DNA of 63,945 bases, filler included, from a candidate division TA06 bacterium SM23_40 (GTDB lineage Bacteria; LJUI01; SM1-40), in assembly GCA_001303705.1 (NCBI GenBank). It is 5 parts of 5 records of this genome, joined end to end, with 100 filler letters (N's around TTAATTAATTAA, not from the genome) between each part and the next. Parts side by side here need not be neighbours in the genome. Positions count along the whole stretch, not along the records: positions 1 to 25,018 come from LJUI01000031.1; 4 more parts are not named here. The stretch is one strand, 5' to 3'. Made by a program: the position numbers and the translations under genes. Positions 1,802 through 58,723 of the stretch are shown here, in pieces; the stretch's first letter is position 1, and every line of letters begins with the position of its first letter. The notes below the pieces were generated by a model. It was not told the DNA's origin and ran no database searches. It worked only from the letters and a program-made list of their open reading frames with translations.

Positions 1802-2292
1802 AGAAAGGAACCGTGCACGGCAGCCGGGGGAGAGTATCGAGGCGAAAGGGATCGACAACTGAGGACTCCTCGAGGGGCCTGGGGATAGCGGTAGAGGCCG
1901 AGATCAGAGTCAGATACGGCGATACTGACAAGATGGGCGTGGGCTACTACGGCCGCTATCTCGAGTGGTTTGAGGTCGGCCGAACTGAGTTCTTCCGCAG
2001 GCTCGGATTGACCTATGCTGAGCTGGAACGCCGATCGTTTTTTCTTCCTGTTGTCGAGGTCTACTGCAAATATCGAACATCAGTACGGTACGATGATCTG
2101 TTGAGGATACGAACGTCCGTCCTCGAGGTAGGCAAGGCCAGCATAACGTTCGAATACGAGATCGTACGCAATGGCGATACCGTACTGATCGCCACCGGGC
2201 ATACTGTGCACGGTTGTGTGGATGAGTGTGGAAAGCTGGTGCGGCTGCCCGAGGAGGTAAAGACTGCTCTGGCATCATTGAGCGGCTCCTGA
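1798..2292 (+). CDS. acyl-CoA thioesterase, YbgC/FadM (hot-dog fold) family
   Basis: IRVRYGDTDKMGVGYYGRYLEWFEVGRTEFFR motif; start position uncertain. Confidence 0.88.
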   Translation: MKKGTVHGSRGRVSRRKGSTTEDSSRGLGIAVEAEIRVRYGDTDKMGVGYYGRYLEWFEVGRTEFFRRLGLTYAELERRSFFLPVVEVYCKYRTSVRYDDLLRIRTSVLEVGKASITFEYEIVRNGDTVLIATGHTVHGCVDECGKLVRLPEEVKTALASLSGS

Positions 2293-2421
2293 TCGGCCGG
2301 CAGCGGGGCGGCCGGTCCACCGGCCAGCACTGGCTCGTTGCAGGTGAGGTAGCTCTGGGAATCCACGGTCCGGGGGGCCTGCTCGTGGGAGCCCAGAGCT
2401 TAGCACGCGTGAGGGTGATGG

Positions 2422-3159
2422 ATGTCGGGTGTGCTCAACAGGCTCGTACTTTCCGGGGCGGGCTTCGGGACCATCGCCATCGTCCTCTGGATGTTCGTGC
2501 TCTTCAGGGTCGGCAGGGAGCCGGCCCGTTCTCATCGTGGCGGCCCCGGCTCTGTCTTCGGCAGCATCATTCTGCTCCTCGCCGCCCTCGCATCGAGCGT
2601 GGCCAGTTTTGGCGCCTACTGGCTCGCCTCGTCTCTTTCTGGCTATCAGCCGATCGACTCGGCACGACTCGTCGCCATCGTCGAATGTCACCCGAGCATA
2701 GACCCGCACTTCGATATGATGCTCTCCTACACGCCGGTGACCGAAGAGGCCGTGCAGGAGAGACAGACGTTCGGGCTGAAGGGGGATGCGTGGATGGTTG
2801 AGGGGATCGTGCTCGAATGGCACGCGTGGTCCCGCATATTGGGGCTCCGTGCATGCCACCGGACAGTGCGCGTAGCCGGGCAGTACGGGAGCGACTCGCT
2901 GCGAACGAGAGGCGGGAGCATTGCCGATGCTGCTGCGAAACCGGAAACCGGCACGTGGAGTCATGAGCTCGACGAAGAACATACATCCTTCTGGGGCCTG
3001 GTGCGCGACCTCGCGCTCTGGCTGCCGGGAGGTAGTGCTCACCATGTTCGCTCAGCCGCGATCGTCTCCGATTGGAATGCGACGTTCGGGGTCTATGTGA
3101 CGCGGTCAGGATATTCTGTTGCCAGAATCGATGAAGGGTTCATTGCCTGGAGCGCATAA
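2422..3159 (+). CDS. hypothetical membrane protein (two N-terminal TM helices)
   Basis: 245-aa ORF co-oriented with neighbours, with two hydrophobic stretches; no recognised motif. Confidence 0.6.
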   Translation: MSGVLNRLVLSGAGFGTIAIVLWMFVLFRVGREPARSHRGGPGSVFGSIILLLAALASSVASFGAYWLASSLSGYQPIDSARLVAIVECHPSIDPHFDMMLSYTPVTEEAVQERQTFGLKGDAWMVEGIVLEWHAWSRILGLRACHRTVRVAGQYGSDSLRTRGGSIADAAAKPETGTWSHELDEEHTSFWGLVRDLALWLPGGSAHHVRSAAIVSDWNATFGVYVTRSGYSVARIDEGFIAWSA

Positions 3160-3209
3160 GACGCGAGCGCATAACACGATTGTGAGTCACATCAGGGGGT
3201 CGCAGAGAG

Positions 3210-5144
3210 ATGGAGAGGTTGAATCGGGCTGCAGCAGTCGCCTCGTTGTTTGTGCTCGTCGCGGTCTGGGTCGTCGCGTCCGCCTCCCGCCCGGATCTGA
3301 ATCCGACCGCTTCCAGCTCCTCGGGTCCAACGAGCATCACCAATTCGCCGAAGGTGACGGCGCGGGCCGACTTCTATCTAAATTCCCTTGAAGAGGACGA
3401 GCGGGCGAAGCTCTGGGTCTTCTTTACTGATAAGGGAATGGCGGATGAGGAGGAGCGCCGCGCTGCACTGGAGAGGGCCGAGCGCGGGCTGACGGAGCGA
3501 GCCAGGGAGAGGAGACTGCGATCGCGTCCAGCGGAGCGGATCGTTGATGAGTACGACATCCCTGTGTATGGTCCCTATGTCGAGGCGGTGACCGCGGCTG
3601 GTGGTGAGCTGCGCTCCGTGTCGCGGTGGCTCAACGCGGTGAGCGTCACCGTTACGCCCAGAGACGTTGATGCGATTCTGGATCTTTTGTTCGTTAGAGA
3701 GATAGATATCGTGAGGACGTATCGGTGGAGAGAGCCGGCGGTGGAGGCGCTGGAGGTAGGAGAAGGCCGCGAGGGTGTTCCCTCGCAGGTGGCGCCTTCG
3801 CTCCCGATGTACCTCGGGCCAGGCCAGGTCCTTGGACCGCAGACGTTCGACTACGGTCTGTCGAGCCGGCAGATCGAGCAGATCAACGTCGATGGTGCAC
3901 ACGAGGCAGGGTACTTCGGCTCGGGCGTGCTCATCGCCATGCTCGATACCGGGTACGAACGGCGCCACAAGTCGCTCCGCCATCTCGATCAGTATGGGCA
4001 GATCATCGATGAATGGGACTTCATCTACGGAGATGGAGATACGCGCTACAATCCCGACACCGACACCCTGGGGCGCACCCAGACCGACCACGGGACGAGG
4101 ATGCTCTCCCTGATCGCTGGATTCCGCTCCGCCCAGCTCATCGGCCCGGCCTTTGCCGCCGATTATCTGCTGTACGCCACGGAGATACTCGATCCTCCCG
4201 ATCATATCTACGAAGAGGACAACTGGGTGACGGCGTCGGAAAGGGCCGATAGCCTGGGCGCCGATATCATCTCGAGTTCTCTCGGATACCAGGAATTCGA
4301 CGACGGGCCCGATTACACGTTTTCAGACATGGACGGCAACACTGCGCTCACTACTATCGCGGCCGATATCGCAGCGAGCCGGGGGATCCTCGTCGCCAAC
4401 GCCATGGGGAATGTGGGCGGGTTCTCTCAGGACTTCATCAATGCACCTGCAGATGCGGACAGCATCTTGACCGTTGGCGGCGTGAATGTGGACAATACCT
4501 GGCATGATGAAAGCCTGACGGGTCCCACTGCTGATGGCCGCATTAAGCCCGAGGTCGTCGGACCCTATCTGGCGTGGGCGGCTGAGACCGACATATATGT
4601 TTCTTCTTACGAGGATTCTGTCGATGGCACGGCCGGGACATCAGTGGCCACGGCCCTCGTCGCTGGGCTGGCAGCGCTCGTGCTCGAGGCCAATCCAACA
4701 CGCTCGGCTATGGAGCTGCGCGAAGCGATCATGGACAGCGTCGGCGTAGCCGGGAACGACACCATGGGTTACGGGATTCCCGATGCGTGGGCGGCGATGA
4801 ACTACTATGGAGCCGTGCAGGTGCGTGAGGAGGAGGCTCTTCTCGATCTCTACCCCAATCCGTTCCTGCCCGGGGAACATCAGGAACTTATCATTCCCTT
4901 CCGTCTCCTTCACGAGACAGAGATCTCTCTCCGCATCTACAGCATCTCGGGCGAACTGGTGAAGGAGTTCTCCGATGGGGAACTGGGAGGAAGCCGGAAG
5001 CTGGCGGGCGAGTACGTGGAGGACGAGGCACTCCGCTGGGACGGCACGAGCTCATCCGGCAAAACAGTCGCCAGCGGGGTTTATTTCGTCATCCTCTCGA
5101 CCGGTTACGCCGATTCCGTGAAGAGACTCGCCGTCGTGCGTTGA
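3210..5144 (+). CDS. secreted S8 (subtilisin-like) serine peptidase with C-terminal FlgD-Ig/T9SS-type sorting domain
   Basis: Signal peptide; catalytic triad motifs MLDTG, DHGT and GTSVAT; GPTADGRIKPEV; C-terminal YPNPF..IYSISGELV..WDG..ASGVYF..KRLAVVR. Confidence 0.9.
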   Translation: MERLNRAAAVASLFVLVAVWVVASASRPDLNPTASSSSGPTSITNSPKVTARADFYLNSLEEDERAKLWVFFTDKGMADEEERRAALERAERGLTERARERRLRSRPAERIVDEYDIPVYGPYVEAVTAAGGELRSVSRWLNAVSVTVTPRDVDAILDLLFVREIDIVRTYRWREPAVEALEVGEGREGVPSQVAPSLPMYLGPGQVLGPQTFDYGLSSRQIEQINVDGAHEAGYFGSGVLIAMLDTGYERRHKSLRHLDQYGQIIDEWDFIYGDGDTRYNPDTDTLGRTQTDHGTRMLSLIAGFRSAQLIGPAFAADYLLYATEILDPPDHIYEEDNWVTASERADSLGADIISSSLGYQEFDDGPDYTFSDMDGNTALTTIAADIAASRGILVANAMGNVGGFSQDFINAPADADSILTVGGVNVDNTWHDESLTGPTADGRIKPEVVGPYLAWAAETDIYVSSYEDSVDGTAGTSVATALVAGLAALVLEANPTRSAMELREAIMDSVGVAGNDTMGYGIPDAWAAMNYYGAVQVREEEALLDLYPNPFLPGEHQELIIPFRLLHETEISLRIYSISGELVKEFSDGELGGSRKLAGEYVEDEALRWDGTSSSGKTVASGVYFVILSTGYADSVKRLAVVR

Positions 5145-5226
5145 CCCATGTGCGGCGCTGACCCGCGTGCGGCACTGACCCGCGTACGGCACTGACCCAT
5201 GTGCGGCACTGACCCATGTGCGGCAC
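5142..5226. repeat. 17-bp tandem repeat, 5 copies (TGACCCRYGTRCGGCRC)
   Basis: Units start at 5142, 5159, 5176, 5193 and 5210; the first begins at the protease stop codon. Confidence 0.9.
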
Positions 5227-5259
5227 TGAGTGGCGCGCAGCGCTGAGTCGCGACGAACG

Positions 5260-5347
5260 TTGAATCCTGCGCCGACGGACACTGAGTTGTACGTCGACTG
5301 GCGTTGAATCCTGCGCCGACCGACACTGAGTTGTACGCCGACTGACG
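5260..5347. repeat. 44-bp tandem duplication (TTGAATCCTGCGCCGAC..CACTGAGTTGTACG..)
   Basis: Two near-identical units at 5260-5303 and 5304-5347. Confidence 0.85.
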
Positions 5348-5404
5348 GCGAGTCCTGCGCAGAGCAGGGCTGGACCGCGCGCAACATAGCCCTGGAGGTG
5401 CGTC

Positions 5405-5941
5405 ATGAAACAACTCCCGGGAATTACGATCTTCGGGGTCGTCTGCATCGTTCTCGGGGCGCTCGGGATCCTCTTCGCTCCGTTAATCTTGTCTGGACTG
5501 TACGGGGGACCCTTCTTCGTGCGGGGTCATTTCCCTCACCTGCATCGCATCTTCTCGGCCTGGCCCATGGCGGGCGGATACCTGCTCTCTACGAACGTGG
5601 TCGGGACACTGGGGTCGCTTGCCCTCCTCATATCCGGCATCGGCCTCCTCGCCCGTGCCGGCTGGGGCCGCATCCTCTTCTTCATAGTCGCTGTCATGAA
5701 GATCGCACTGGTGACCTTCAGCCTTCCACCGAACATTGTGCTGATGCGGAAGATGTACGAACCGCTGGGGAGTCCGGCCGTTATGTTGGGCACGATCGGC
5801 GGGATTGCGTACCAGCTCCTGAGGTGGATCGCAGTCGTGGTCTTCTTCGGCGTGGGCCTGTGGTACTTCAGCCGGTCGGTTGTTCGCGAGGCGTTTGAGA
5901 GCCGCGCTCTTCCCAGTGTTGGAAGTGCCCCTCCTGGATAG
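5405..5941 (+). CDS. hypothetical integral membrane protein (about 4 TM helices)
   Basis: GGAGG upstream of the ATG; hydrophobic helices throughout. Confidence 0.7.
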   Translation: MKQLPGITIFGVVCIVLGALGILFAPLILSGLYGGPFFVRGHFPHLHRIFSAWPMAGGYLLSTNVVGTLGSLALLISGIGLLARAGWGRILFFIVAVMKIALVTFSLPPNIVLMRKMYEPLGSPAVMLGTIGGIAYQLLRWIAVVVFFGVGLWYFSRSVVREAFESRALPSVGSAPPG

Positions 5942-5959
5942 CGTACCGGGACAAATCGC

Positions 5960-5989
5960 TTGACACGGCGGCTCCGCGGTTGTTATATT
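5960..5989 (+). promoter_or_regulatory. putative sigma-70 promoter for tRNA-Asn
   Basis: TTGACA(5960)-18 nt-TATATT(5984) with an extended TG, about 100 nt upstream of the tRNA. Confidence 0.6.
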
Positions 5990-6090
5990 CCACGTGCGCC
6001 TCGGGAGCGGGCGAGGGCAGCAGGTTCGCCGCTCCTTTCATTCTGCGCCTCATTCGACACAAGATAGCGCAACAACAATACAGATCGCGC

Positions 6091-6166
6091 TCCTCGGTAG
6101 CTCAATCGGCAGAGCGGGTGGCTGTTAACCACTAGGTTGCAGGTTCGAGTCCTGCCCGAGGAGCCA
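6091..6166 (+). tRNA. tRNA-Asn (GTT)
   Basis: Full cloverleaf: acceptor TCCTCGG/CCGAGGA, D arm GCTC/GAGC, anticodon arm GGTGG-CTGTTAA-CCACT, T arm GCAGG-TTCGAGT-CCTGC, encoded CCA. Confidence 0.97.
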
Positions 6167-8445
6167 GCGTTTGGCATAATCGGAGGTAGGCCGTTTCGGA
6201 CGAGCGGTTCTACCTCGTTCTGTTGGTAGGACGGTTGATCTTCGGCATGGTGTCGCCAGGCGAATGTCTAGCGATGTGGGACTGATGCGTTGATTGACGG
6301 TCGACTCGTGGGTAGAGAAGGCGATTTCCGGCATCCGGAGGCCAGAGAGCATGTGGCGACGATTTGGAAGGTCTTGTTGAATGGTCTGGACAACTCCATA
6401 CAGGTCGTGTACTCTTGCGGTGACGGAGGAGCGAGGACTTCTTCACTCATGGGTGGTCCTGATTGATAGGATGGCGAAGTTTGCTCCTGCATGTCGAGGT
6501 CGCCGAGCGCGCCGAGATGAGAGTACATCGTTGTGATGCTCTGGTCGGACGCAATCAGGATACGCAACAGAGGGAGGAGAAAGATGAGAACGATGACCGT
6601 TCTGCTTGCATTGCTGATTCCGCTCACCGCGGGTGCGCAGATCACGTTCGAGCGCACTTACGGCGGCACCTCGGGAGATGAGGGCTATTCGGTCCAGCAG
6701 ACGAGTGATGGAGGATATATCGTCGCGGGATGGACCGGGTTGTACGGTACGGGCTGGGACGACGCAATTCTGATCAAGACAGACGAGGCCGGCGACACGA
6801 TGTGGGTGCGCCCCTATGGTGGGCCCGACGGCGAGCTAGGCTATTCGGTTGATCAGACGGGCGACGGGGGGTATATCATTGCGGGATGGACAAGTTCGTT
6901 CGGTGCTGGGGCGCGTGATGTGTATCTCATCAAGACAGATGGCGTGGGGAACGCGGTCTGGGTGCGCACCTATGGCGCGCAGGAGCATGAAGAGGGCCAT
7001 TCTGTCGAGCAGACGTTGGACGGAGGGTATGTAGTTGCAGGATACACGCATTCGTTCGGGGCTGGCAACAACGACGTGTATCTCATTAAGACTGACAGCG
7101 GGGGGGATACGATGTGGGCGTGCACGTATGGCGGGTCCCTCGAAGACGAGGGCCATTCTGTCGAGCAGACGATGGATGGCGGGTACATCGTCGCGGGGCA
7201 TACGCATTCGTTCGGTTCTGGCCTTGACGACGTCTATTTGATCAAGACGGACGATCAGGGGGACACGGTCTGGACGCGGACGTACGGCGGTCCAGAACAT
7301 GATGTAGGATATTCTGTTGAACAGACGAGCGATGGGGGGTATGTGATCGCGGGCTATACATATTCGTTCGGTTCTGGCCAGGCCGACGTCTATCTGATCA
7401 AGACTGACGGTGCGGGGGACACGGTCTGGACACGGACGTACGGCGGGTCTGGTTGGGAAACAGGCTCATCGGTTGCGGAGACGGATGGTGGGGGGTATGT
7501 CATCGTAGGGAGGACGAACTCGTTCGGTGAAGGCGGCGAGCTGTACCTGATCAGGACTGACGGTGCGGGGGACACGGTCTGGACGCGCACGTACGGCGAC
7601 AGTCTATATGAGGCGGGCTACGCAGTCGAGCAGACGAGCGACGGGGGATATGTCATCTCAGGAGAGGCCACCTCGTTCGGCACTGGTGAGAGCGACGTGT
7701 ACCTTATCAAGACAGATGCCGATGGGTTGGTCCAGGTCAGTGAAGATCATGGTGAGATCCCTCGTCCGGAGTGCCAGTACTTGGCCCAGAACTATCCCAA
7801 CCCGTTCCGGACGAGGACAGCGATTACGTATGCGCTGCCTGATCAGCAGCCGGTCACGTTGGCGATTTACGACGTTCGGGGGGCGCTGGTGCGGGAGTTG
7901 GCTTCCGGAGCGGTCTCGGCTGGTAGTCACCGAGTGACGTGGGATGGGCGGGACGAGCGAGGGCTTGAGGCGGCGAGTGGGGTCTACTTCTGTCATCTGG
8001 AGACCCGCCATCAGTGTGAGACAAGGCGCATGGTCCTGCTACGATAGTATCATATGACCCTGTGAGGCAGCAGATTGAGGCTTTTGCGGCAGTTTCATCA
8101 TGACTTCCGTGAGAAACGGTCCACTTTTGACATTGAGCTAACACGCCACATATCTCCCATGGGGTCAAATGATACGAACATACGTAGCATCAAGAGTCCG
8201 GCATCTTTCGTTCCGCGGGGACGCTGAGAGGGGTGATGCTGCGTATTCTCGGTCTTGAAGATCACAGACTTACCTTGGTAGAGGATGCCGATACCCAGGT
8301 GAGCGGCTCGCCATGGAGTTGCTGGGGAGTGGAGGTCGATAGGGCAGTGTCAGCGGGTGACGAGGGCAATCCTGGTATGTCCCCTGGCGACCCGTTTCAT
8401 TTCAACTCTTGACTGATCCCACAAAAGTACGCTCTGGGACACCAA
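6155..8445. mobile_element. integrase-free cassette 1 (2291 bp) at the tRNA-Asn 3' end
   Basis: Starts at core CCCGAGGAGCCAG (6155-6167) plus arm A, and ends with arm B plus core copy CCCGGGGAGCCAG (8446-8458). Carries one secreted beta-propeller gene. Confidence 0.65.
6584..8047 (+). CDS. secreted repeat protein (7 repeats of about 50 aa, probable beta-propeller) with FlgD-Ig/T9SS-type C-terminal domain
   Basis: Signal peptide after GGAGGAG; seven TYGG..G.SV.QT.DGGY..AG.T.SFG.G..DVYLIKTD..GDT.W repeats; C-terminal QNYPNPF..WDGRDERG..ASGVYF..RRMVLLR. Confidence 0.88.
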   Translation: MRTMTVLLALLIPLTAGAQITFERTYGGTSGDEGYSVQQTSDGGYIVAGWTGLYGTGWDDAILIKTDEAGDTMWVRPYGGPDGELGYSVDQTGDGGYIIAGWTSSFGAGARDVYLIKTDGVGNAVWVRTYGAQEHEEGHSVEQTLDGGYVVAGYTHSFGAGNNDVYLIKTDSGGDTMWACTYGGSLEDEGHSVEQTMDGGYIVAGHTHSFGSGLDDVYLIKTDDQGDTVWTRTYGGPEHDVGYSVEQTSDGGYVIAGYTYSFGSGQADVYLIKTDGAGDTVWTRTYGGSGWETGSSVAETDGGGYVIVGRTNSFGEGGELYLIRTDGAGDTVWTRTYGDSLYEAGYAVEQTSDGGYVISGEATSFGTGESDVYLIKTDADGLVQVSEDHGEIPRPECQYLAQNYPNPFRTRTAITYALPDQQPVTLAIYDVRGALVRELASGAVSAGSHRVTWDGRDERGLEAASGVYFCHLETRHQCETRRMVLLR

Positions 8446-8692
8446 CCCGGGGAGCCAGCGGTGGGCATAATCGGAGGTAGACCGTCTCGGATGAGCGGTC
8501 CTATCTCGTTCTATTTGTGGGGTGGTTGATCTCCGGCACGGTGTCGACAGCCCGTATCAGGTGGTGTTGGACAGGCGCGATGGGGGATAGCTGCAGGTGA
8601 GTGAGTGAGGCTCTCCGGGAGGTCGATCAGGGCTTGGTTGCGAATCTCGTGGCTGTCGAGCTGCCAGCGGCACTCGATGGTCTTTCATGTTG

Positions 8693-9892
8693 TCAAAGTG
8701 TAAGCCACGAGTACACGAGCACCCCAGAACGCTTGAAAGACCGGTCACCGCCGTAGATGAGGGTGGCGCGAGTAGTTTCGTCTCCTGAGACTTTCCGCCA
8801 GTAGGTAAGGTTGTCGAAGAAGTCGGACGCCACTGTCTGGGCGGATTTGGTTTCTACCGGTATCAACTTGCTGCCCATTTCGATAATAACATTCACCTCG
8901 TGCCCTGCCGCATCGCGCCAGAAATAGAGGGGCGGCTGCTCTCCCCGGTGTGAGAAGTTCTTGTAGAGTTCAGAAACCACGAAACTCTCAAAGATTGCTC
9001 CCCGCTCGGCGCGGTGGTAAAGCTCCTCCGGGGATTGAACCTGGAGCAGGTAGCACAAAAGCCCCGTATCCAGGAAGTAGAGCTTAGGACTCTTTGTCAG
9101 CCGCTTGCCGAAGTTCCGGTGATGGGGCCGGAGTAGCGTGATGATGAAGCTGGCTTCGAGTACAGATAACCATCGCTTGGCAGTAGTGTGTGAAATGCCG
9201 CAGTCGGTGGCCAACCCTGAGAGGTTGAGCAGTTGTCCGCAGCGGCCGGCACAAAGCCGTACAAACCTGCCGAACGCCTCGATATTGCCGACGTTCAGGA
9301 CGTTCCGCACGTCCCGCTCGAGGTAGGTCTGGTAATAACTGGCCAGCCAGTCACGCGGGGAAAGGTGCTTATCGTGTATCCGTGGGTAGAAACCCGTGAA
9401 TACGGTATCCATTAAACCGGCTTTGGGCTGCTTGAGGTTCCTGGGCACAGTCTTGCCCAGGGTCTCGAGTGATATGGGCTTTCGGCCCTCGATCTCGGCC
9501 AGTGAGAACGGCAGCAGATGGAGCACCGCGCACCTGCCGGCAAGGGACTGCGAGATGTTCTGGAGAAGCAAGAAGTTCTGTGAACCCGTCAGGATGAACC
9601 TGCCCGTCCAGTCCCGATGCTCGTCAACGAGAACCTGGATATACGAGAACAGATCTGGTGCCCGTTGCACTTCGTCCAAGATGACCGGCCCATCGACCTG
9701 GCTGAGGAAGCCGCGCGGATCTTCCAGGGCGAACTGCCGCTGATCCGGTAGCTCAAGGGACAGGTAGTCGTAGTCCTTGAAAACGGCCTGGACCAGCGTG
9801 GTCTTGCCGGACTGTCGCGGCCCGGTGACTGTTGCCACCGGGAACTGCCTTGCGGCTTCTTTCAGTTTCTTGGCCAGGATTCGTTCTATCAT
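8693..9892 (-). CDS. ATP-binding protein, AAA_14 + DUF4143 family
   Basis: Walker A TGPRQSGKTT, Walker B ILDEVQRAP, ILTGSQ, SLAGR, YLERDV, KSPKLYFLDTGL, FESFVVSEL and YFWRD..GHEV. Confidence 0.92.
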   Translation of the reverse strand: MIERILAKKLKEAARQFPVATVTGPRQSGKTTLVQAVFKDYDYLSLELPDQRQFALEDPRGFLSQVDGPVILDEVQRAPDLFSYIQVLVDEHRDWTGRFILTGSQNFLLLQNISQSLAGRCAVLHLLPFSLAEIEGRKPISLETLGKTVPRNLKQPKAGLMDTVFTGFYPRIHDKHLSPRDWLASYYQTYLERDVRNVLNVGNIEAFGRFVRLCAGRCGQLLNLSGLATDCGISHTTAKRWLSVLEASFIITLLRPHHRNFGKRLTKSPKLYFLDTGLLCYLLQVQSPEELYHRAERGAIFESFVVSELYKNFSHRGEQPPLYFWRDAAGHEVNVIIEMGSKLIPVETKSAQTVASDFFDNLTYWRKVSGDETTRATLIYGGDRSFKRSGVLVYSWLTL

Positions 9893-9913
9893 GCCTGCCT
9901 CCATCCAGATAGT

Positions 9914-9958
9914 TGAATATTCAATATTCACTTTACACGACCAGTGCCCGTCTGTCAA
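9914..9958 (-). promoter_or_regulatory. putative sigma-70 promoter with palindromic operator for the ATPase gene
   Basis: Minus strand TTGACA-17 nt-TAAAGT, then a perfect inverted repeat TGAATATT-C-AATATTCA (9914-9930) over the likely start site. Confidence 0.55.
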
Positions 9959-10320
9959 GCCATTTCTTCTGGCGCGGCGGAGCGCTGGCGGTCTCTAGTT
10001 GGCGCACGCGTCCAAGAATGAAGCTGCGAAAGAAAGCCGCCTATGGCATCGTTTCACCGGTATCGGAGTACAGACCGACTCGGTCATCCTGTCAAGAACA
10101 CTCCCCTGAACAGTAACTTGTACCTCCTAGCTGTCCGTCGTCAGCGACTGTGAAGGAAGAGAAATGAGATTAGATTCTCAGCGGCAGATCTATGCTGAGA
10201 GGAGGGTTATCCTCGTATGTCCCCTGGCGCATCGCTTCATCTCGATTCTTGACAGATCCCACAAGAGTACGCTCCGGGACATCAACCCGAGGAGCCAGTC
10301 TGATCCAGAGGCAGAACTTC

Positions 10321-10350
10321 ACGGGTGAATGGTTTCACCCGTTTCGTTTT
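10321..10350 (+). terminator. intrinsic terminator (probably the displaced native tRNA-Asn terminator)
   Basis: ACGGGTGAA-TGGT-TTCACCCGT followed by TTCGTTTT, 22 nt after the last att core. Confidence 0.7.
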
Positions 10351-10444
10351 CATGGTGATGGTGTAGTCCAGGACTCCGTGAGATGGGTTGTACTCGATTC
10401 GTCTCGCGAGCCAGCGGTGTCCTTGGGTAGTTCCGACAATGTCC

Positions 10445-10473
10445 TTGACATCCTTCCTAAAGGCGTGTAGACT
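10445..10473 (+). promoter_or_regulatory. putative sigma-70 promoter
   Basis: TTGACA-17 nt-TAGACT upstream of the beta-helix genes. Confidence 0.6.
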
Positions 10474-10662
10474 GACAGGGTAGGCGATGAGTTCCCGAGA
10501 TTTCTGCTGGCCACGGACTGGCAGAGGGCGCCCGGTGGCCTCGGGAATGGGCGTAGTTGTGCAACAGCTCAAGGGTGGGTTATTCGAGAGCGACACCGAG
10601 CGTCACAGTGAGGGGTCGTTCTTTTTTTTCTCGTTAGATCAACGAGAGGGAGGATACGAACA

Positions 10663-12606
10663 ATGAGGTGGAACTGGCAAGTAACGATAATATCTTCTGC
10701 CATGGTCAGCCTAGTGGCGACTTGCTCCGCAACTATCATCCACGTTCCGCAGGAGTATCCGACAATCCAAGCGGGCATCGATGCCGCTGTTGACCTGGAC
10801 ACAGTGCTCGTGGCTGATGGAATCTACACGGGCTACGGGAACCGGGATATCGACTTCTTTGGCAAGGATATTGTGGTGATGTCGAAGAACGGAGCAGAGA
10901 CGACGGTTATCGATTGTCAGGGGAGCCCCTCAGATCCCCACCGGGGAGTCGTGTTCCACAGTGGCGAGGATTCGAGCGCTGTGCTTCAGGGTTTCACGAT
11001 CAAGAACGGATGGGCCGAGTGCGGTGCTGGGATCCACTGCTATCACTCTTCCCCAACCATTGTCGACAACATAATCATAGATAATACCACACCGCCCTGC
11101 TTCTGGAACGACGGCGGCGGCATAATGAGCGTGGAGGCTTCTCCGACCATCGTGGGCAATGTGATCGCAGGGAATGTATCGGGCTGGGGGGGAGGCATCT
11201 CTTTTTTCTTCTCTACAGCGATCGTCGTCGATAATACCGTTGAGGGGAATGCATGTGGATGGTCCGGGGGCGGGATCTGGTGCGATCGCACTTCTGGCAT
11301 TATAGAGGGCAATGCGATGGTGGCCAATGCCTCCGAACTGGCTGGCGGAGGAATCATCTGTGACGGAGAGCCGACACCGACGATCAAGGACAATACCATT
11401 GTGGAGAATACTGCGGGCACGTACGGTGGCGGAATCTGTTTCAGTTCTCTAACGCCAATCACAGGCAATACTATTACGGGAAACACTGCCGTCTCAGGAG
11501 GCGGGATCTTCTGTCAGTCTTCTACCATCATTGAGAATAACGTCATCAGCGAGAACATGGCCTCGCTCTACGGCGGCGGCATCTACACGCGATTGTCCGA
11601 ACCACAGATCTTGCTGAACACGATTGTGGGGAATACGGTCGACTACTACGGGGGCGGGATTGCCTGCTGGGAATCGTCTGCGAATATCCAGGCCAACAGG
11701 ATTACCGGCAATGCCGCGACCTGGCACGGCGGAGGAATCTTTTGCCAACTGTCTTCGGTCACTATTGAGGACAACAGGATTGTGGGGAATAGCAGCGGGC
11801 TCGGCGCTGGCTATGGTGGAGGGATCTATTGCTGGGACTGCTCACCGGTCGTCAGTCGCAACACGCTCGCAGAGAATATGGGCGCGTGCGGCGCGGGGAT
11901 TGCCACCTGGGGAACTTCCTCTCCTATCGTCAGGAGCAATACGATTATTGCGAACGCAGCGATTCTGGGTGGTGCAATCTCCTGCTGGTCCCCTTCTTCG
12001 GCAAGCATAGTCAACTCCATTCTGTGGGCGGACAGCGCTGGCACCGGGCCGGAGATCTACTTGGAAGCGGGGAGCTCGATCGACGTCTCATACTCCGACA
12101 TTCAGGGTGGGTGGCCTGGTGAAGGCAATGTAGAAGCTGATCCGATATTCGTGCTGGCCGAGAGGCAAGACTACCGTCTGCTCTGGGGCTCGCCCTGCAT
12201 CGACGCTGGTCACCCGGATTCTCTTGATCCCGATGGCACCCGCAGCGATATGGGCGCGTTCTTCTTCAATCAGGACGACCACATGACATTCTACCTGACG
12301 CCTGATGTCATCGAAGTCACACCAGGCGGCGAGCTGGGGGTGACCTACACCCTCATCAACCGCTGGGCGCAGCCTGAGCCGTTCTGGGTGCATAGCGAGG
12401 CGACTCTGCCGAGCGGAGACACGTTGAGCGTGATGGGGCCCGACCAGTACACCTTGCCAGCCGATTTCACGGTGCAGCAGCACCTGGATCACAGCGTGCC
12501 TGTTGGTGCGCCGCTGGGTGTGTACCGGTATCAGTCTCGGATCGGAGTGGCGCCCTCCACGCTCTACGACGAGGATAGCTTCGAGTTCAAGGTGGTGGAG
12601 CCATAA
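10663..12606 (+). CDS. secreted right-handed parallel beta-helix repeat protein (pectin lyase-like fold) with C-terminal Ig-like module
   Basis: Signal peptide; IHVPQEYPTIQAGIDAA; many N.I..N.A..GGGI.C repeats; DP.FV..DYRL..SPCIDAG.P..DPDGTRSDMGA. Confidence 0.88.
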   Translation: MRWNWQVTIISSAMVSLVATCSATIIHVPQEYPTIQAGIDAAVDLDTVLVADGIYTGYGNRDIDFFGKDIVVMSKNGAETTVIDCQGSPSDPHRGVVFHSGEDSSAVLQGFTIKNGWAECGAGIHCYHSSPTIVDNIIIDNTTPPCFWNDGGGIMSVEASPTIVGNVIAGNVSGWGGGISFFFSTAIVVDNTVEGNACGWSGGGIWCDRTSGIIEGNAMVANASELAGGGIICDGEPTPTIKDNTIVENTAGTYGGGICFSSLTPITGNTITGNTAVSGGGIFCQSSTIIENNVISENMASLYGGGIYTRLSEPQILLNTIVGNTVDYYGGGIACWESSANIQANRITGNAATWHGGGIFCQLSSVTIEDNRIVGNSSGLGAGYGGGIYCWDCSPVVSRNTLAENMGACGAGIATWGTSSPIVRSNTIIANAAILGGAISCWSPSSASIVNSILWADSAGTGPEIYLEAGSSIDVSYSDIQGGWPGEGNVEADPIFVLAERQDYRLLWGSPCIDAGHPDSLDPDGTRSDMGAFFFNQDDHMTFYLTPDVIEVTPGGELGVTYTLINRWAQPEPFWVHSEATLPSGDTLSVMGPDQYTLPADFTVQQHLDHSVPVGAPLGVYRYQSRIGVAPSTLYDEDSFEFKVVEP

Positions 12607-12639
12607 TCTGGGCCACAGCCACGAGAGGAGGAGAGTGAA

Positions 12640-14571
12640 ATGAGGTGCGCATGGCACGTTGTGGCTGCATTTCTCGGTGTGATCAGCCTTGTGTCGGTCG
12701 CTCCAGCGACGGTCATTCATGTCCCACAGGAGTATCCGACCATCCAGGCGGGGGTCGATGCGGCGGTGGATGGCGACACGGTGCTCGTGGCTGACGGCAC
12801 CTACGTCGGGTACGGGAATCGAGATATCGATCCCGGGGGCAAGGCGATAGTTGTGATGTCTAAGAACGGAGCTGAGGCGACGATCGTCGACTGCCAGGGG
12901 ACCTCATCAGATCCGCATCGGGGGTTCCTGTTCCATTGCGGAGAGGACTCCAGCACGGTAGTCCGGGGATTCACGGTCAGGAACGGGTGGGCCCACTGTG
13001 GAGCCGGGATGGATTGCTACTACTCTTCTCCGACCATCGTCGGCAACGTGATCACGGGGAACACGACGCCGCTTTGTCTGTGGTATGAGGGCGGCGGCAT
13101 TTATTGCATCGAATCGTCGGCGATCATCGTCGGCAACACGATCACGGAGAACGCAGCAGGTTTTGGCGGTGGGGTGGCCTTCTCCTATCTGTCTCCGACC
13201 ATTGTGGATAATACCATAGCAGATAACACCGCTGCATGCGGGGGAGGTGGAGTCTATTGCTTCCGCGCCTCTGGTACGGTCGCGCGTAACGAGATCAGGG
13301 GGAATACTGGCGGTTGGGACGGGGGCGGTTTATACTGCGACTACGAGTCTTCTGTCGTAATCGAAGGCAATACCATCGTGGGGAACGTGTCCCCCCGGGG
13401 GGGTGGCATCTATTGCGGGCAGTGTTCGCCAGTCATCGTTTACAATAGTCTAACTGGAAATGAGGCTGTAGAGTACGGCGGGGGGATCTGTGTGTGGTCA
13501 TCCTCTCCGACCATCGAAGGCAATGCGTTTAAGGGGAATGCTGCCCAGCGAGGCGGAGGGATCGACTGCCTGTACTCGTTCGCGGCGATCATCGGAAACA
13601 CCGTGATAGAGAACAGTGCCGACTACGGCGGCGGAATCTCCTGCTGGGAATCCACGCCCACGATCGACTCCAATAGACTCGCCCGAAACATCGCCGTCTG
13701 GGATGGCGGCGGAATATTCTGCCATCAATCTCCGGCGATCATCGTGCGCAACTCGATACTGGAGAACGAGACGGACTACGGAGGAGGAATCTTCTGTTGG
13801 GACTCCTCTCCCAGCATACGTGGTAATACAGTCGCCTTGAATATCGCCACATCCGGGGCCGGCATCTGCTGTTGGGGGAGCTCTTCTCCCGCGATCTACG
13901 GCAATACTGTGTCACAGAATACCGGCATTCTGGGCGGCGGCATCTCCTGCTGGTCGTCCTCCTCGGCGGTCGTAGTCAATTCCATTCTGTGGGCGGACAG
14001 TGCCAGTACGGGGCCGGAGATCTACGTGGAGGAAGGAAGTTCCATGACCGTCGCGTACTCGGATGTGTGTGGCGGCTGGCCCGGCCAGGGGAACGTGGAC
14101 GCTGATCCTGCATTCGTCCTGGCCGAGAGCCAAGACTACCGTCTGCTCTGGGAATCGCCATGCATTGACGCAGGGTATCCTGATTCCCTTGACCCCGACG
14201 GCACACGGAGCGACATGGGGGCGCACTACTTCGACCAGGACGACTATCTTACGCTCTACCTGACGCCCGATGTCCTCGAGCTGGCACCTGGCGGCGAGTT
14301 AGGAGTCACGTACACTGTGATCAATCGCTGGGCACAGCCTGAACCATTCTGGGTACTGACGGAGGCGGTCTTGCCAAACGGAGATACGCTGAACGTCATG
14401 GGGCCGGACTCCTACACTCTGCCGGCGGATCTGACTGTGCAGCGTTACCTCACTCACCGGATCCCGCCGGGTGCAGCGCCTGGTGTCTACGGCTACCGAT
14501 CGAGAATCGGGGTGCCGCCCTCAACGCTCTACGATAAGGACAGCTTCGAGTTCTGGGTTGTGGAGCCGTAG
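12640..14571 (+). CDS. secreted parallel beta-helix repeat protein, tandem paralogue of the preceding gene
   Basis: Same architecture, colinear with 10663-12606 over its full length; GAGGAGGAG RBS. Confidence 0.88.
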   Translation: MRCAWHVVAAFLGVISLVSVAPATVIHVPQEYPTIQAGVDAAVDGDTVLVADGTYVGYGNRDIDPGGKAIVVMSKNGAEATIVDCQGTSSDPHRGFLFHCGEDSSTVVRGFTVRNGWAHCGAGMDCYYSSPTIVGNVITGNTTPLCLWYEGGGIYCIESSAIIVGNTITENAAGFGGGVAFSYLSPTIVDNTIADNTAACGGGGVYCFRASGTVARNEIRGNTGGWDGGGLYCDYESSVVIEGNTIVGNVSPRGGGIYCGQCSPVIVYNSLTGNEAVEYGGGICVWSSSPTIEGNAFKGNAAQRGGGIDCLYSFAAIIGNTVIENSADYGGGISCWESTPTIDSNRLARNIAVWDGGGIFCHQSPAIIVRNSILENETDYGGGIFCWDSSPSIRGNTVALNIATSGAGICCWGSSSPAIYGNTVSQNTGILGGGISCWSSSSAVVVNSILWADSASTGPEIYVEEGSSMTVAYSDVCGGWPGQGNVDADPAFVLAESQDYRLLWESPCIDAGYPDSLDPDGTRSDMGAHYFDQDDYLTLYLTPDVLELAPGGELGVTYTVINRWAQPEPFWVLTEAVLPNGDTLNVMGPDSYTLPADLTVQRYLTHRIPPGAAPGVYGYRSRIGVPPSTLYDKDSFEFWVVEP

Positions 14572-25018: not shown

Positions 25019-25118
25019 NNNNNNNNNNNNNNNNNNNNNNNNNNNNNNNNNNNNNNNNNNNNTTAATTAATTAANNNNNNNNNNNNNNNNNNNNNNNNNN
25101 NNNNNNNNNNNNNNNNNN
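25019..25118. other. artificial contig linker
   Basis: N run containing TTAATTAATTAA (stops in all six frames). Confidence 0.99.
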
Positions 25119-44827: not shown

Positions 44828-44927
44828 NNNNNNNNNNNNNNNNNNNNNNNNNNNNNNNNNNNNNNNNNNNNTTAATTAATTAANNNNNNNNNNNNNNNNN
44901 NNNNNNNNNNNNNNNNNNNNNNNNNNN
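44828..44927. other. artificial contig linker
   Basis: N run with TTAATTAATTAA. Confidence 0.99.
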
Positions 44928-47619: not shown

Positions 47620-49971
47620 ATGGCGGCACCGACTGCTCCGCAGCCGACGAGTGTTCGCAGGACGCGCCAGCGGCGTGCGATGCGGAAGAGCAAGCGTCTT
47701 TCGATTGCCAACCGGGTGATTGACTTCTACCGCGCTGACAACGACGCGCGGAGCACGGATCTCGACCGCAGGCTCCAGCGCTATGCCAAGTTTCGTCAGT
47801 GGACGTCGGCGGATAGCGAGCCTTATCCCGGCTCAAGCAATCAGGCCCTGCCGGATATCACCTCTGCGGTGCTCCGCACGGAGGATACGCTCCACAACGC
47901 GGTGATGTCGAATCGGCCGGTTGCTGTCTCGCGTGCGATCCACAAGAGCGACGAGGAGAAGCAGCAGCTCATCGACGATCTCCATGACTTCCAGCTCTTC
48001 GTCGAGCAGAATGGCGAGCGGACGATCGAAGAGCTAATCGACCAGTACGTGAAGGAAGGAGTCTTCACGGCCTATGTCCCGTGGATCGAGGAGCATCGCG
48101 AGGTGGAGGGTCGGAGGACTTTTGAGCCGATACCGGAAGACGAGTTGCCGGTGGACTATTTCGAGACGCTGATTCGGCAGGAGTTTCCGTCGTCGAAGAT
48201 CTATCCGCCTCGTGAGGACGAGGATGGCTGGGACTGGACGATCGAGAATGAGGAGGGCAAAGAGGTCGAGATCTCCTTCTTCACGACGCCCGACGAGCTG
48301 GAAATGGTGACGAAGCAAAGTGTCGAGGTCTTCAACGGGCCCAGGATCTTCGTCAAGAGCTACAATCAAGTGGTCTATCCGCCGGGCGTCCACAACCTCC
48401 AGATCCCGAGCCCGAGCAATCCGGGCGGTGCGCCGCATGTGATCCTGTGGGACAAGCCGACGACTGACGAGATCGCGAGGCTTCAGAAGTCAGGCTACTA
48501 CGATCTCATCGGCACGGACGACGTGAAGGCGCTGGAGCAGCAGAGCGAGGACAAGCAGGACCAGGAGGAGCAGCGGCAGAAGACGATCATCCACGGGAAG
48601 GACGAGATCAAGCAGGAGAAGGAAAAGAAGCATCAGAGATTCACGCGGCTCGTCTGCTTCGATCTCTACGACCAGGACGGCGACGGGATCGCCGAGGACA
48701 TGATCTGGTGGGTGCTTCTCGAGCCGAAGCTCCTGCTGCGGGCTAAGCGGCTGACGGAGGTCTATCCCTTCACGCCGCCGCGGAGGCCCTTTGCGGAGGC
48801 GACCTTCCTGCCCGTGAAGGACATGCGGGAGGGGATCGGTCTGATCGAGCTGATGGAGCCGCTCCAAGACTTCAAGAAGGTGATCACCGACCTGATGGTC
48901 GACTCGGGCGCACTCGCCAACTCGCCCTTCTTCTTCTACCGCCCTGTCTCGGGAATCAACCCGGAGCGATTCCGACCCTGGCCTGGAGACGGCATCCCGG
49001 TCAACGATCCGAGAAACGATATCGTCTTCCCAGACCTCTCGAATAGCACCCAGGCATGGGCCATCAACCTGATGGCGCTGATCACGCAGATGGAGGAGAG
49101 GCTCAACGTGATCGGCGACCTCCAGCTTGGGCGCGTCCCGGCCGGGAAGTCCTCGGCACTCCGCACGGTGGGCGGCATCCAGACGATTCTCTCGCAGGGC
49201 GAGGCGCGGCCAGAGCGGATCTTGCGGCGCTTCTTCATGGGAGTGACGGAGATCATCCGGCAGATGCATGAGCTCAACCAGCGATTTCTGCCCGACCGGA
49301 AGATATTTCGCGTGCTGGGCCCCGTACTGCCGGACCAGGATCCCTACCGGGTGGTGGAGAGCGCCGGCCAGATCTCGGGCCGGTTCCGCTTCGACTTCGA
49401 TGCCAACGTGCTGAATGCCAGCAAGGCTGCACTCCAAGCGTCGCTCGAGACCCTGATCGGGGTCTACGTGAGCGATATCGCGATCCAGATGGGGATCTCG
49501 ACGCCCGAGACGATCTACAGGCTCTTCACGGACTACGGCCAAGCCGTGGGCCAGAAGCCGGCGCGCTATCTCGAGGCGCCCTCTCCGGTTGCGATGAAGC
49601 CGAGGTTGACGGCCGAGGAGGCCATCGTGCAGATCAGCTACGGGGCAACGGAGTTCGATTGGCTGCCTGCGGAGGGTGCTGAGCAGCACTTCCAGAAGCT
49701 CATCACCTTCGTCCAGGGCGATAAGGTGGGGCTCTTGCCGCAGGATGTGATACCCAATCTGAGGTCCTATCTGAGCCAGATCGGTCAGGCTGCGGCAAGC
49801 GAGCGGCAGCTTGCCGCGCAGGCGCAGGCCGCGGGACGGGTTGGGGGCCCGCTGGGCCCCGGCGGCCAGGGCCGGCAGCCGGTGCCGCCGGGCCCGCAGG
49901 AGCCCACCATGGTCGGTGAGGGTGAGCTTCTTCCAGAGGATCTGCCTACCAGCAGGGGGCTTGCGCCGTGA
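47620..49971 (+). CDS. phage portal protein (long, P22-like size) with Pro/Gln-rich tail
   Basis: 783 aa downstream of TerL; RPFAEATF.P....EGIGLIELMEPLQD..K.ITDLMVD..ALAN and RTVGGIQTIL segments are typical of portals; AAGGAG RBS. Confidence 0.8.
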   Translation: MAAPTAPQPTSVRRTRQRRAMRKSKRLSIANRVIDFYRADNDARSTDLDRRLQRYAKFRQWTSADSEPYPGSSNQALPDITSAVLRTEDTLHNAVMSNRPVAVSRAIHKSDEEKQQLIDDLHDFQLFVEQNGERTIEELIDQYVKEGVFTAYVPWIEEHREVEGRRTFEPIPEDELPVDYFETLIRQEFPSSKIYPPREDEDGWDWTIENEEGKEVEISFFTTPDELEMVTKQSVEVFNGPRIFVKSYNQVVYPPGVHNLQIPSPSNPGGAPHVILWDKPTTDEIARLQKSGYYDLIGTDDVKALEQQSEDKQDQEEQRQKTIIHGKDEIKQEKEKKHQRFTRLVCFDLYDQDGDGIAEDMIWWVLLEPKLLLRAKRLTEVYPFTPPRRPFAEATFLPVKDMREGIGLIELMEPLQDFKKVITDLMVDSGALANSPFFFYRPVSGINPERFRPWPGDGIPVNDPRNDIVFPDLSNSTQAWAINLMALITQMEERLNVIGDLQLGRVPAGKSSALRTVGGIQTILSQGEARPERILRRFFMGVTEIIRQMHELNQRFLPDRKIFRVLGPVLPDQDPYRVVESAGQISGRFRFDFDANVLNASKAALQASLETLIGVYVSDIAIQMGISTPETIYRLFTDYGQAVGQKPARYLEAPSPVAMKPRLTAEEAIVQISYGATEFDWLPAEGAEQHFQKLITFVQGDKVGLLPQDVIPNLRSYLSQIGQAAASERQLAAQAQAAGRVGGPLGPGGQGRQPVPPGPQEPTMVGEGELLPEDLPTSRGLAP

Positions 49972-52271: not shown

Positions 52272-52293
52272 TGATCGGGTGGATAGGAGGCTA

Positions 52294-52820
52294 TGATGGC
52301 TGTACCGCACATCAGTGAGAACTTTGGAGACCTTCTGGACCCGAGATTCCAGAGGATCTTCGATGAGGAGTATAAGCAGCTCCAATCGATGATCCCAGAG
52401 CTCTATACCGACGTCCCGTCGAATGGCCGGAACAACATGATGTGGAGCGAGGTCGGCACGCTACCGGACTTCGATCAGTTTAGTGGCATGGTCGGATACC
52501 ACTCGCAGAATCAGGGCTACGACACGACGGCGACCTATCTGGAGTTCACCAACGGGATCCAGGTCGAGCGGAAGCTCTTTGACGACGACCAGTACAACGT
52601 GATCGATCAGAGGCCGAGAGCCCTTGCTGCATCAGCGGCGAGGACCCGTGAGAAGCACGGGGCAGCGCCATTCAACAACGCCTTCGCTGTGGATACGACC
52701 TTCTACAGCAACTCGGAGGCGGTGGCGCTGTGCTCCAACTCGCACACGACGACCTCTGGAGCCTCGACTGCGAACGGCTTCGACAATCTTGTGACGACGG
52801 CTCTCTCGGCTGTGGCACTC
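52294..52820 (+). CDS. major capsid protein, Mu gpT-like (3' partial)
   Basis: FGDLLDP..RIFDEEY, EFTNGIQVERKLFDDDQY..I..RPRALAASAART.E..A..FNNAF, ALCSNSH; AGGAGG RBS. Start is the ATGATG at about 52293-52296. Confidence 0.85.
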
Positions 52821-52920
52821 NNNNNNNNNNNNNNNNNNNNNNNNNNNNNNNNNNNNNNNNNNNNTTAATTAATTAANNNNNNNNNNNNNNNNNNNNNNNN
52901 NNNNNNNNNNNNNNNNNNNN
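52821..52920. other. artificial contig linker
   Basis: N run with TTAATTAATTAA. Confidence 0.99.
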
Positions 52921-58623: not shown

Positions 58624-58723
58624 NNNNNNNNNNNNNNNNNNNNNNNNNNNNNNNNNNNNNNNNNNNNTTAATTAATTAANNNNNNNNNNNNNNNNNNNNN
58701 NNNNNNNNNNNNNNNNNNNNNNN
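58624..58723. other. artificial contig linker
   Basis: N run with TTAATTAATTAA. Confidence 0.99.

Follow-up and report, generated by a model that had tools for sequence, protein, structure and literature searches.

Tandem islands at tRNA genes and the locus of candidate division TA06

Tandem islands that are bounded by attachment (att) sites and carry no integrase have already been described, as the cis-mobilizable elements (CIMEs) of Streptococcus and as the ssrA islands of Dehalococcoides, and in this sense the layout reported here is not new. We describe such a stack at the 3′ end of the tRNA-Asn gene of candidate division TA06 bacterium SM23_40, an uncultured organism from sediment, where two units of 2291 bp (unit 1) and 1840 bp (unit 2), with one gene each, follow one another in the order tRNA-core-A1-gene 1-B1-core-A2-gene 2-B2-core. 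The core is a short repeat of the tRNA 3′ end, and A and B are the arms that follow and precede it. With moderate confidence, we read the units as two related but distinct, nonautonomous CIME-like elements that accreted at tRNA-Asn by means of a recombinase supplied in trans. The difference from the known systems is one of degree: the units hold single genes, they have the attachment site alone in common, and no recombinase-bearing partner accompanies them. The DNA analyzed (the window) is the whole stretch of 63,945 bases, composed of five contigs of one bin that are joined by N spacers (25019-25118, 44828-44927, 52821-52920, and 58624-58723; each a pair of 44-N runs with 12 bases in between), across which linkage is not to be assumed. 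The tRNA-Asn locus falls within piece one (1-25018), whose sequence equals that of a metagenome contig of 25,018 nt, and the sequence of the organism available for recombinase and arm searches was ~63.6 kb rather than the whole genome.

CIMEs are defined as elements that have lost their integration and transfer genes, still possess attL and attR, and undergo accretion with elements that come in (PMC5704250). In that account, the CIMEs of Streptococcus are bounded by attL and attR, are without integration or transfer genes, sit one behind another at a target gene's 3′ end, and need the integrase of another element. Boundaries of the attL/attR kind were also found here, as judged by sequence layout only, and neither unit was found to hold integration or transfer genes. 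The CIMEs differ in that they are described as derived by deletion from integrative and conjugative elements (ICEs) or integrative and mobilizable elements (IMEs) and as usually lying in tandem with a functional partner, whereas no partner or integrase is in view at the TA06 locus. A parent ICE or IME was not encountered in the collections searched, nor a remnant of an integrase or transfer gene in the units. The units also differ from CIMEs in having a single gene, a length of 1.8-2.3 kb, and a homology to each other that is limited to the attachment site. In Dehalococcoides, fifteen ssrA islands are reported to lack an integration module and were proposed to be cis-mobilizable or fixed (PMC3146451). 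As described there, these islands resemble the present stack in forming tandem arrays behind a t(m)RNA gene, with direct repeats of its 3′ end and a conserved motif just upstream of each repeat. They are unlike it in that the target is the tmRNA gene, the islands are multi-gene, and the large serine recombinase DsiB is encoded in 16 islands of the same arrays (PMC3146451); by comparison, the locus studied here has a tRNA-Asn target, ~90-bp arms on both sides of the core, and no recombinase in any member. A DsiB-type serine recombinase module next to attL was absent from the region.

Genomic islands in tRNA genes (tDNAs) are also delimited by the program Islander, whose description gives an attP of ~250 bp that contains a tDNA fragment, with crossover at the junction of the T-stem and the acceptor stem, and which demands that each island carry an integrase gene and be no shorter than 2 kb (PMC4383910). 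In that description, an intact tDNA and a displaced 3′ fragment in direct orientation mark the island ends. The same was found here, with an intact tRNA gene followed by 12-nt fragments at 8446 and 10286 (+ strand), and core 1 corresponds to the T-stem/acceptor junction sublocation that Islander lists. Neither unit carries an integrase, and of the two only unit 1 reaches the minimum length; Islander would reject both by design. The tycheposons of Prochlorococcus are reported to stack at tRNA genes, parted only by a partial tRNA copy, and their islands to contain degenerate remnants, scattered extra partial tRNAs, and adaptive or defensive cargo (bioRxiv 10.1101/2020.12.28.424599). According to the same report, however, 910 of 937 tycheposons encode a tyrosine recombinase, and the remnants are without clear boundaries, whereas the arms of both units described here are complete and sharply bounded.

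A preliminary description of this DNA had seen in the units a family of integron-like cassettes. Integron cassettes are likewise recombinase-free, single-gene units stacked head to tail at one platform, but they depend on folded single-stranded attC palindromes beside intI and attI, mostly lack a promoter, and share one orientation, and none of these properties was found at the locus. When B-core-A was folded as single-stranded DNA, a z-score of -0.16 was obtained, with 86 of 200 shuffles folding as well. The platform is a tRNA gene, with no intI/attI/Pc and no tyrosine recombinase on the 25-kb contig, and gene 2 lies on the opposite strand with a promoter-like site of its own. With only two units found, and with the searches for an attC fold, for co-orientation, and for a third copy all negative, the term was not upheld.

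Attachment sites and cargo genes

The features of the locus, in order along the window, are:

5960-5989, + strand: promoter-like site upstream of the tRNA, TTGACA-18-TATATT, 11/12 with a TG extension (consensus match only)
6091-6166, + strand: tRNA-Asn(GTT), the last 12 nt of which are the left part of core 1 (ARAGORN, Rfam)
6155-6167, + strand: core 1, attL crossover region, 0 mismatches
6168-6259, + strand: arm A1, left arm of insert 1, with a hairpin at 6183-6216 and then a T-rich tail
6584-8047, + strand: gene 1 (487 aa), secreted repeat beta-propeller protein whose C-terminal sorting domain is of the T9SS/FlgD-Ig type
8359-8445, + strand: arm B1, right arm of insert 1 (repeat comparison)
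8446-8458, + strand: core 2, 1 mismatch (5th base G instead of A), in the middle of the hybrid junction B1-core-A2
8459-8550, + strand: arm A2, left arm of insert 2, with a hairpin at 8474-8507
8693-9892, − strand: gene 2, AAA_14/DUF4143 ATPase, 399 aa (PADLOC defense candidate PDC-S01, E 2.7e-112)
9930-9958, − strand: promoter-like site of gene 2, TTGACA-17-TAAAGT
10199-10285, + strand: arm B2, right arm of insert 2 (repeat comparison)
10286-10298, + strand: core 3 (attR), the tRNA's original 3′ end in displaced position, matching core 1 at 13/13 bases
10321-10352, + strand: intrinsic-terminator-like hairpin and T run, 23 nt past core 3 (-16.8 kcal/mol, z -4.2, 1/200 shuffles as good)

The only tRNA gene of the window, tRNA-Asn(GTT), was found to be intact and was confirmed by Rfam at 69.9 bits; the promoter-like site upstream of it may serve as its promoter. 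No other family was returned by the Rfam search, with arm B plus core matching neither tRNA nor any Rfam family. The core, CCCGAGGAGCCAG, consists of the last 12 nt of the tRNA and one base; it takes in the last T-stem base, the 3′ strand of the acceptor stem, the discriminator, CCA, and the base that comes next. It occurs three times in the window, always on the + strand and in direct order. Three matches were reached in none of 100 dinucleotide shuffles (shuffle mean 0.23), and when 2 mismatches were allowed only two extra matches appeared (chance mean 3.98).

Arm A comes after cores 1 and 2 and is identical at 77 of 92 positions between its two copies (6168-6259 versus 8459-8550). Arm B precedes cores 2 and 3 and, with the core included, is identical at 82 of 98 positions (8361-8458 versus 10201-10298), or at 70 of 85 when the arm is taken alone. 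These counts, the three cores, and the unit lengths had been given in the preliminary description and were reproduced exactly by recount. An independent repeat search of the window recovered the same arm pairs at 85% and 84%, MAFFT agreed, and blastn within the window yielded E-values of 7e-15 for arm A and 3e-11 for arm B. Past the arm edges, identity between the units was found to fall immediately to 1-5 matches per 10 nt, such that their homology ends within ~10 nt of the arm ends on both sides, and the interiors displayed no similarity to each other or elsewhere in the window (blastn word 7-8). The conserved attachment region thus delimited comprises arm B, core, and arm A (~87 + 13 + 92 bp), or ~190 bp. 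Within it, the cores agree at 25 of 26 positions, compared with an identity of 0.83 when both arms are pooled (P = 0.05 under the rate of the arms). An inverted repeat between arms A and B was not detected by the repeat search, and the GC content displayed no sharp break across the locus.

The hairpin of arm A, of 11-12 bp, is kept in both copies, its 3 differences being one-sided changes that are compatible with pairing, and it folds at -19.7 kcal/mol in A1 (z -1.8) and -18.9 kcal/mol in A2 (z -1.7). The hairpin at 10321-10352 is probably the original terminator of the tRNA-Asn gene, in which case the DNA from 10299 onward would be the old attB flank; a strong terminator-like structure 23 nt past core 3 is what would be expected had this DNA once been joined to the tRNA. 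In both copies of arm B, an open frame of 31 codons was observed on the − strand (8350-8445; 10190-10285), starting right at the core, together with an 11-codon frame on the + strand (8377-8412; 10217-10252) behind an AGGAGG-like motif. These small open reading frames (ORFs) were rejected as genes, as 10 of the 31 residues differ at 84% nucleotide identity and the majority of substitutions alter the amino acid.

The two cargo genes bear no relation to each other, differ in length, and face opposite ways. Gene 1 is a member of an extensive paralogue family that characterizes candidate division TA06 and its neighbors, with 60-63% identity to TA06 proteins, and a homologue of 87% identity was found on an 11,756-nt metagenome contig, probably alongside a 54.5% paralogue; among the best 120 matches, no homologue of gene 2 or of the beta-helix genes described below was on a contig of 11,756 nt. 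Homologues of gene 2 were detected at 82-86% amino acid identity in metagenome-assembled genomes (MAGs) named Deltaproteobacteria and Firmicutes, and at 73% in a Nitrospirae MAG. By sequence comparison gene 2 clearly appears to be horizontally mobile, because it has such homologues in other phyla while the housekeeping protein AccA, encoded on the locus contig, tops out at 64% identity in the Genome Taxonomy Database (GTDB) species genomes. The DNA common to the copies of gene 2 was found to be the coding sequence, ~47-50 nt upstream (to 9939), and ~25 nt downstream, and neither a tRNA nor the arms were present near the homologues in other phyla at the loci inspected. One homologue adjoins a type I restriction system. 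In locus L134, where the gene lies around 3950-5225, it is flanked by 75-nt inverted repeats (3671-3744 and 5334-5406, 85%). Gene 2 would appear to be a frequent traveler that is not always within such a unit.

Directly past core 3, at 10663-14571, are two paralogous NosD-like beta-helix genes that are 61% identical to each other. The first of these has no homologue above 61% in 5.8 billion proteins, save near-identical copies in its own 90% cluster, and the DNA just beyond the stack also looks lineage-specific. No further core copy bounding the beta-helix region was found.

Searches for a recombinase, further copies, and rearranged forms

The preliminary description had named four traces to look for: a recombinase gene beside the same arms, copies of the arms with other cargo, an empty tRNA-Asn site, and circular B-core-A junctions in reads. 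For the recombinase, every long ORF on the five contigs was compared with Pfam and PHROG, as were 20 small ORFs situated within or beside the two units, the latter covering ~1.1 kb of noncoding DNA in and next to the units. Families of recombinases, resolvases, or transposases were matched by 0 of 82 Pfam queries and 0 of 39 PHROG queries, which bears out the earlier statement that neither unit encodes a recombinase. When genes 1 and 2 and the 20 small ORFs were considered, no match to PF00589 or another recombinase was observed; the region is also without a Resolvase/Recombinase domain, and no remnant of an integrase or transfer gene was detectable in the 20 small ORFs of the noncoding parts. 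No recombinase gene was found beside the same arms in the ~63.6 kb. On another contig of the bin, a phage-like portal gene (47620-49971; Pfam SU10_portal 1.4e-33; phrog_1216) and a major-head-like fragment (52293-52820; phrog_371, 3.8e-08) were detected. The other ORFs of this region are without a family match and no integrase is alongside, and the region may be a prophage remnant.

Copies of the arms were sought with blastn and with exact patterns, the latter in the GTDB species genomes, IMG/VR, and the JGI metagenome contigs; exact-pattern scans overlook any arm copy that has diverged as far as the two known copies have. Within the 63,945 bases, blastn revealed no third copy of arm A or arm B. 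A 17-mer of arm A matched (i) 15 loci in the GTDB species genomes, all of them chance matches of at most 25 nt; (ii) one locus in IMG/VR, also by chance; and (iii) 34 loci in the JGI metagenome contigs, of which 32 were chance matches and 2 were on the window's own first-piece contig. For the longest conserved block of arm A, all matches off its own contig were at most 28 nt. A 20-mer of arm B had 0 matches in IMG/VR and 0 in the GTDB species genomes. When B-core-A was compared by blastn, no match was found in phages and plasmids or in any of the 5 genomes reached via AccA loci, and across one candidate phylum (206 genomes) the 5 matches obtained, each of 22-25 nt, were near chance. That phylum is probably the wrong one, with ClpB just 55-61% identical to that of five genomes compared and the 178-aa upstream ORF found in 0 of 206. 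The search for arm copies with other cargo was thus blank or returned chance matches in the collections searched.

A close relative in which the site might be empty was not found among the GTDB species genomes, and none of 80 AccA loci in these genomes had a tRNA-Asn within 10 kb. The 3′ 28-mer of the tRNA-Asn was present at no fewer than 121 loci of the GTDB species genomes, in many phyla; among the 121 loci listed, none had arm-like sequence, and the 2 that had extra core copies in one locus proved to carry whole additional tRNA genes. Neither an empty site nor an alternative-cargo allele nor a circle junction was seen in the searches made. A third case from the 28-mer scan, with two matches spaced 2,982 nt apart on a single contig, belongs to a Candidatus Saccharicenans MAG. 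Here, a tRNA-Asn of identical sequence to that of the window is followed by a 2,982-bp insert (merged coordinates 2000-5010, tRNA on the + strand) that is bounded by a 44-nt displaced copy of the 3′ part of the tRNA, beginning in the anticodon loop. The insert has two ORFs (432 aa, weak FadL/TodX match; 424 aa, no match) and no integrase domain, and the ~45 nt past the tRNA and past the fragment are similar by eye. This locus is a further integrase-less insert at tRNA-Asn, in an unrelated phylum.

Twelve public sequencing runs were found to contain the stretch, none of them listed as RNA, and the Logan contigs of four runs were compared with positions 4000-13000. The tRNA, core 1, and arm A1 were bridged in the contigs of one run. 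Among the 15 joints listed, none skipped or circularized a unit, and the circular B-core-A junction that the preliminary description had suggested seeking was not among them; a further 10 joints and 735 pieces are outside those listed, no listed piece spans the middle junction, and Logan contigs show presence, not absence, so that rare excision would go unseen. Proteins of the window recur at 98.8-100% amino acid identity (18 protein pairs) on contigs of 208,719, 183,167, 25,980, 22,534, and 4,260 nt, which include two differently named public MAGs and all represent one population. By its locus tags, one MAG has room for exactly three features between a 245-aa protein and gene 1, which fits the peptidase together with the 178-aa ORF and the tRNA. 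In the second MAG, the tags place exactly six features between the 245-aa protein and the second beta-helix gene, which fits the same three plus gene 1, gene 2, and the first beta-helix gene. Near-identical copies of gene 2 and of the first beta-helix gene are each on a 4,260-nt contig, assumed to be one contig from the equal size alone. The stack looks stable in the sampled population, a weak test given that one population was sampled. Over two noncoding stretches, 7913-8514 and 10321-10621, the summed depth in the Logan contigs of four other metagenomes came to 2-4× that of the neighboring genes, and in one run as many as 5 contigs overlay position 8076. Both stretches could be strain bubbles or related sequence elsewhere in the communities; no second copy is present in the window.

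Formation of the stack and its meaning

The order of tRNA, cores, arms, and genes corresponds to the product of successive site-specific integrations at the tRNA 3′ end, as the preliminary description had held. In our preferred reading, accretion of two CIME-like elements, each element would consist of an attachment site of ~190 bp and one cargo gene, and two successive insertions into the 3′ end of tRNA-Asn would have been carried out by a site-specific recombinase that neither element encodes. An incoming circle would carry B-core-A, and its core would recombine with the tRNA-derived core, such that the last 12 nt of the tRNA are rebuilt from element DNA and the earlier copy of the 3′ end is displaced downstream. 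Each insertion would set arm A behind the tRNA, where its hairpin and T-rich tail may substitute for the terminator, and the second insertion could have occurred at either attL or attR of the first. For the enzyme, an arm-dependent (lambda-type) tyrosine integrase acting in trans is favored because the arms are conserved over ~90 bp on each side, which is attP-sized; a large serine recombinase of the kind seen in the ssrA islands of Dehalococcoides would be the less favored alternative. The sharp end of homology at both inner arm edges and the better preservation of the cores than of the arms argue that the units were distinct and small before they arrived, rather than having been cut down at the site. 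The better-kept cores also suggest that the arms differed from each other on arrival.

Several observations weigh against this reading. The mismatch in core 2 and the 16-17% divergence of the arms could mean decay. The cognate integrase was not found in the ~63.6 kb of the organism that was searched, no third copy of either arm appeared in any collection searched, and the idea of related elements is drawn from two units (n = 2). The hairpins of arm A are not statistically compelling, with 10 of 200 and 12 of 200 shuffles folding equally well, and neither, with two copies only, are the blocks of conservation. In the Logan contigs of three runs, arm B2, core 3, and the flank were bridged unchanged, and every population assembly probed appears compatible with the same stack. 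The core 2 mismatch, the lack of a third copy, and the uniform population speak against current activity in particular, and the stack shows no sign of moving today.

Some of these observations would be expected if two integrase-bearing islands had entered at tRNA-Asn, had been internally deleted to one gene each, and were now fixed and inert. Such decay is the textbook route to a CIME as described in PMC5704250, and it would suit the compatibility of all population assemblies probed with one arrangement, the core 2 mismatch, the likeness of the arms at just 83-84%, and the membership of gene 1 in a lineage-typical paralogue family (60-63% to TA06 proteins). Scars of this kind are nonetheless unlikely in our judgment, since two independent deletions would be needed, each reaching the inner edge of both arms, and the homology between the units stops within ~10 nt of the arm ends; moreover, no integrase fragment was detectable in the 20 small ORFs of the noncoding parts, and the cores have not drifted along with the arms. 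A different view would make tRNA-Asn an integron-like capture platform, at which cassettes of an attP plus one gene are continually inserted and excised by a chromosomal recombinase. The sharp edges and the attachment site as the only sequence common to the units agree with this view, as do the single self-contained gene per unit, the widely transferred defense-candidate family of cargo 2, and the 87% copy of gene 1 on the 11,756-nt contig with the 54.5% paralogue. We consider it improbable, in that only two units and no further arm copy emerged from any collection, no polymorphism was seen, no recombinase lies beside the platform, B-core-A is not an attC-like foldable palindrome and has no inter-arm inverted repeat, and the cassettes are not co-oriented, with gene 2 having its own promoter-like site. 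The related proposal of minimal double-stranded cassettes, free of recombinase, replication, and transfer functions and moved by a chromosomal or phage integrase, which would amount to an integron analogue made from lambda-type att sites, appears to us just as doubtful.

Duplication of one unit in tandem could have been supported by the direct repeats of 13 bp plus arms through unequal crossing-over between cores, with the cargo of one copy replaced later. This is very improbable, as the cargo genes differ in kind, length, and orientation and retain no residual similarity (blastn word 7-8), and the cores, with 25 of 26 positions matching, contrast with arms that have diverged by 16-17%; independent captures, as had been argued in the preliminary description from the arm divergence and unrelated cargo, provide the better fit. 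That the pattern arose by chance, or reflects an intergenic repeat dispersed without relation to tRNA ends, is scarcely credible given three cores that keep the register of the tRNA 3′ end and follow one another in direct order, a number reached in none of the 100 shuffles, and arm matches at E = 1e-11 to 1e-15 with no other copy in the five genome contigs. Accretion of two small elements by a recombinase in trans is the reading that we retain.

The locus is one clean example, with no evidence of a family, of activity, or of mobility. The pattern of integrase-less inserts may nevertheless be more common than the literature suggests, given the 2,982-bp insert at the tRNA-Asn of the Candidatus Saccharicenans MAG. 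Such units would be systematically missed; Islander, for instance, is described as dropping candidates that lack an integrase or are shorter than 2 kb (PMC4383910). If the tRNA gene did act as a capture platform, single genes such as defense candidates would be moved between genomes unseen by island finders. If the units are still mobilized in trans, they would constitute a route of single-gene exchange, here of a defense-candidate ATPase and a secreted surface protein, and, if true, such exchange would occur in uncultured lineages without obvious conjugative elements.

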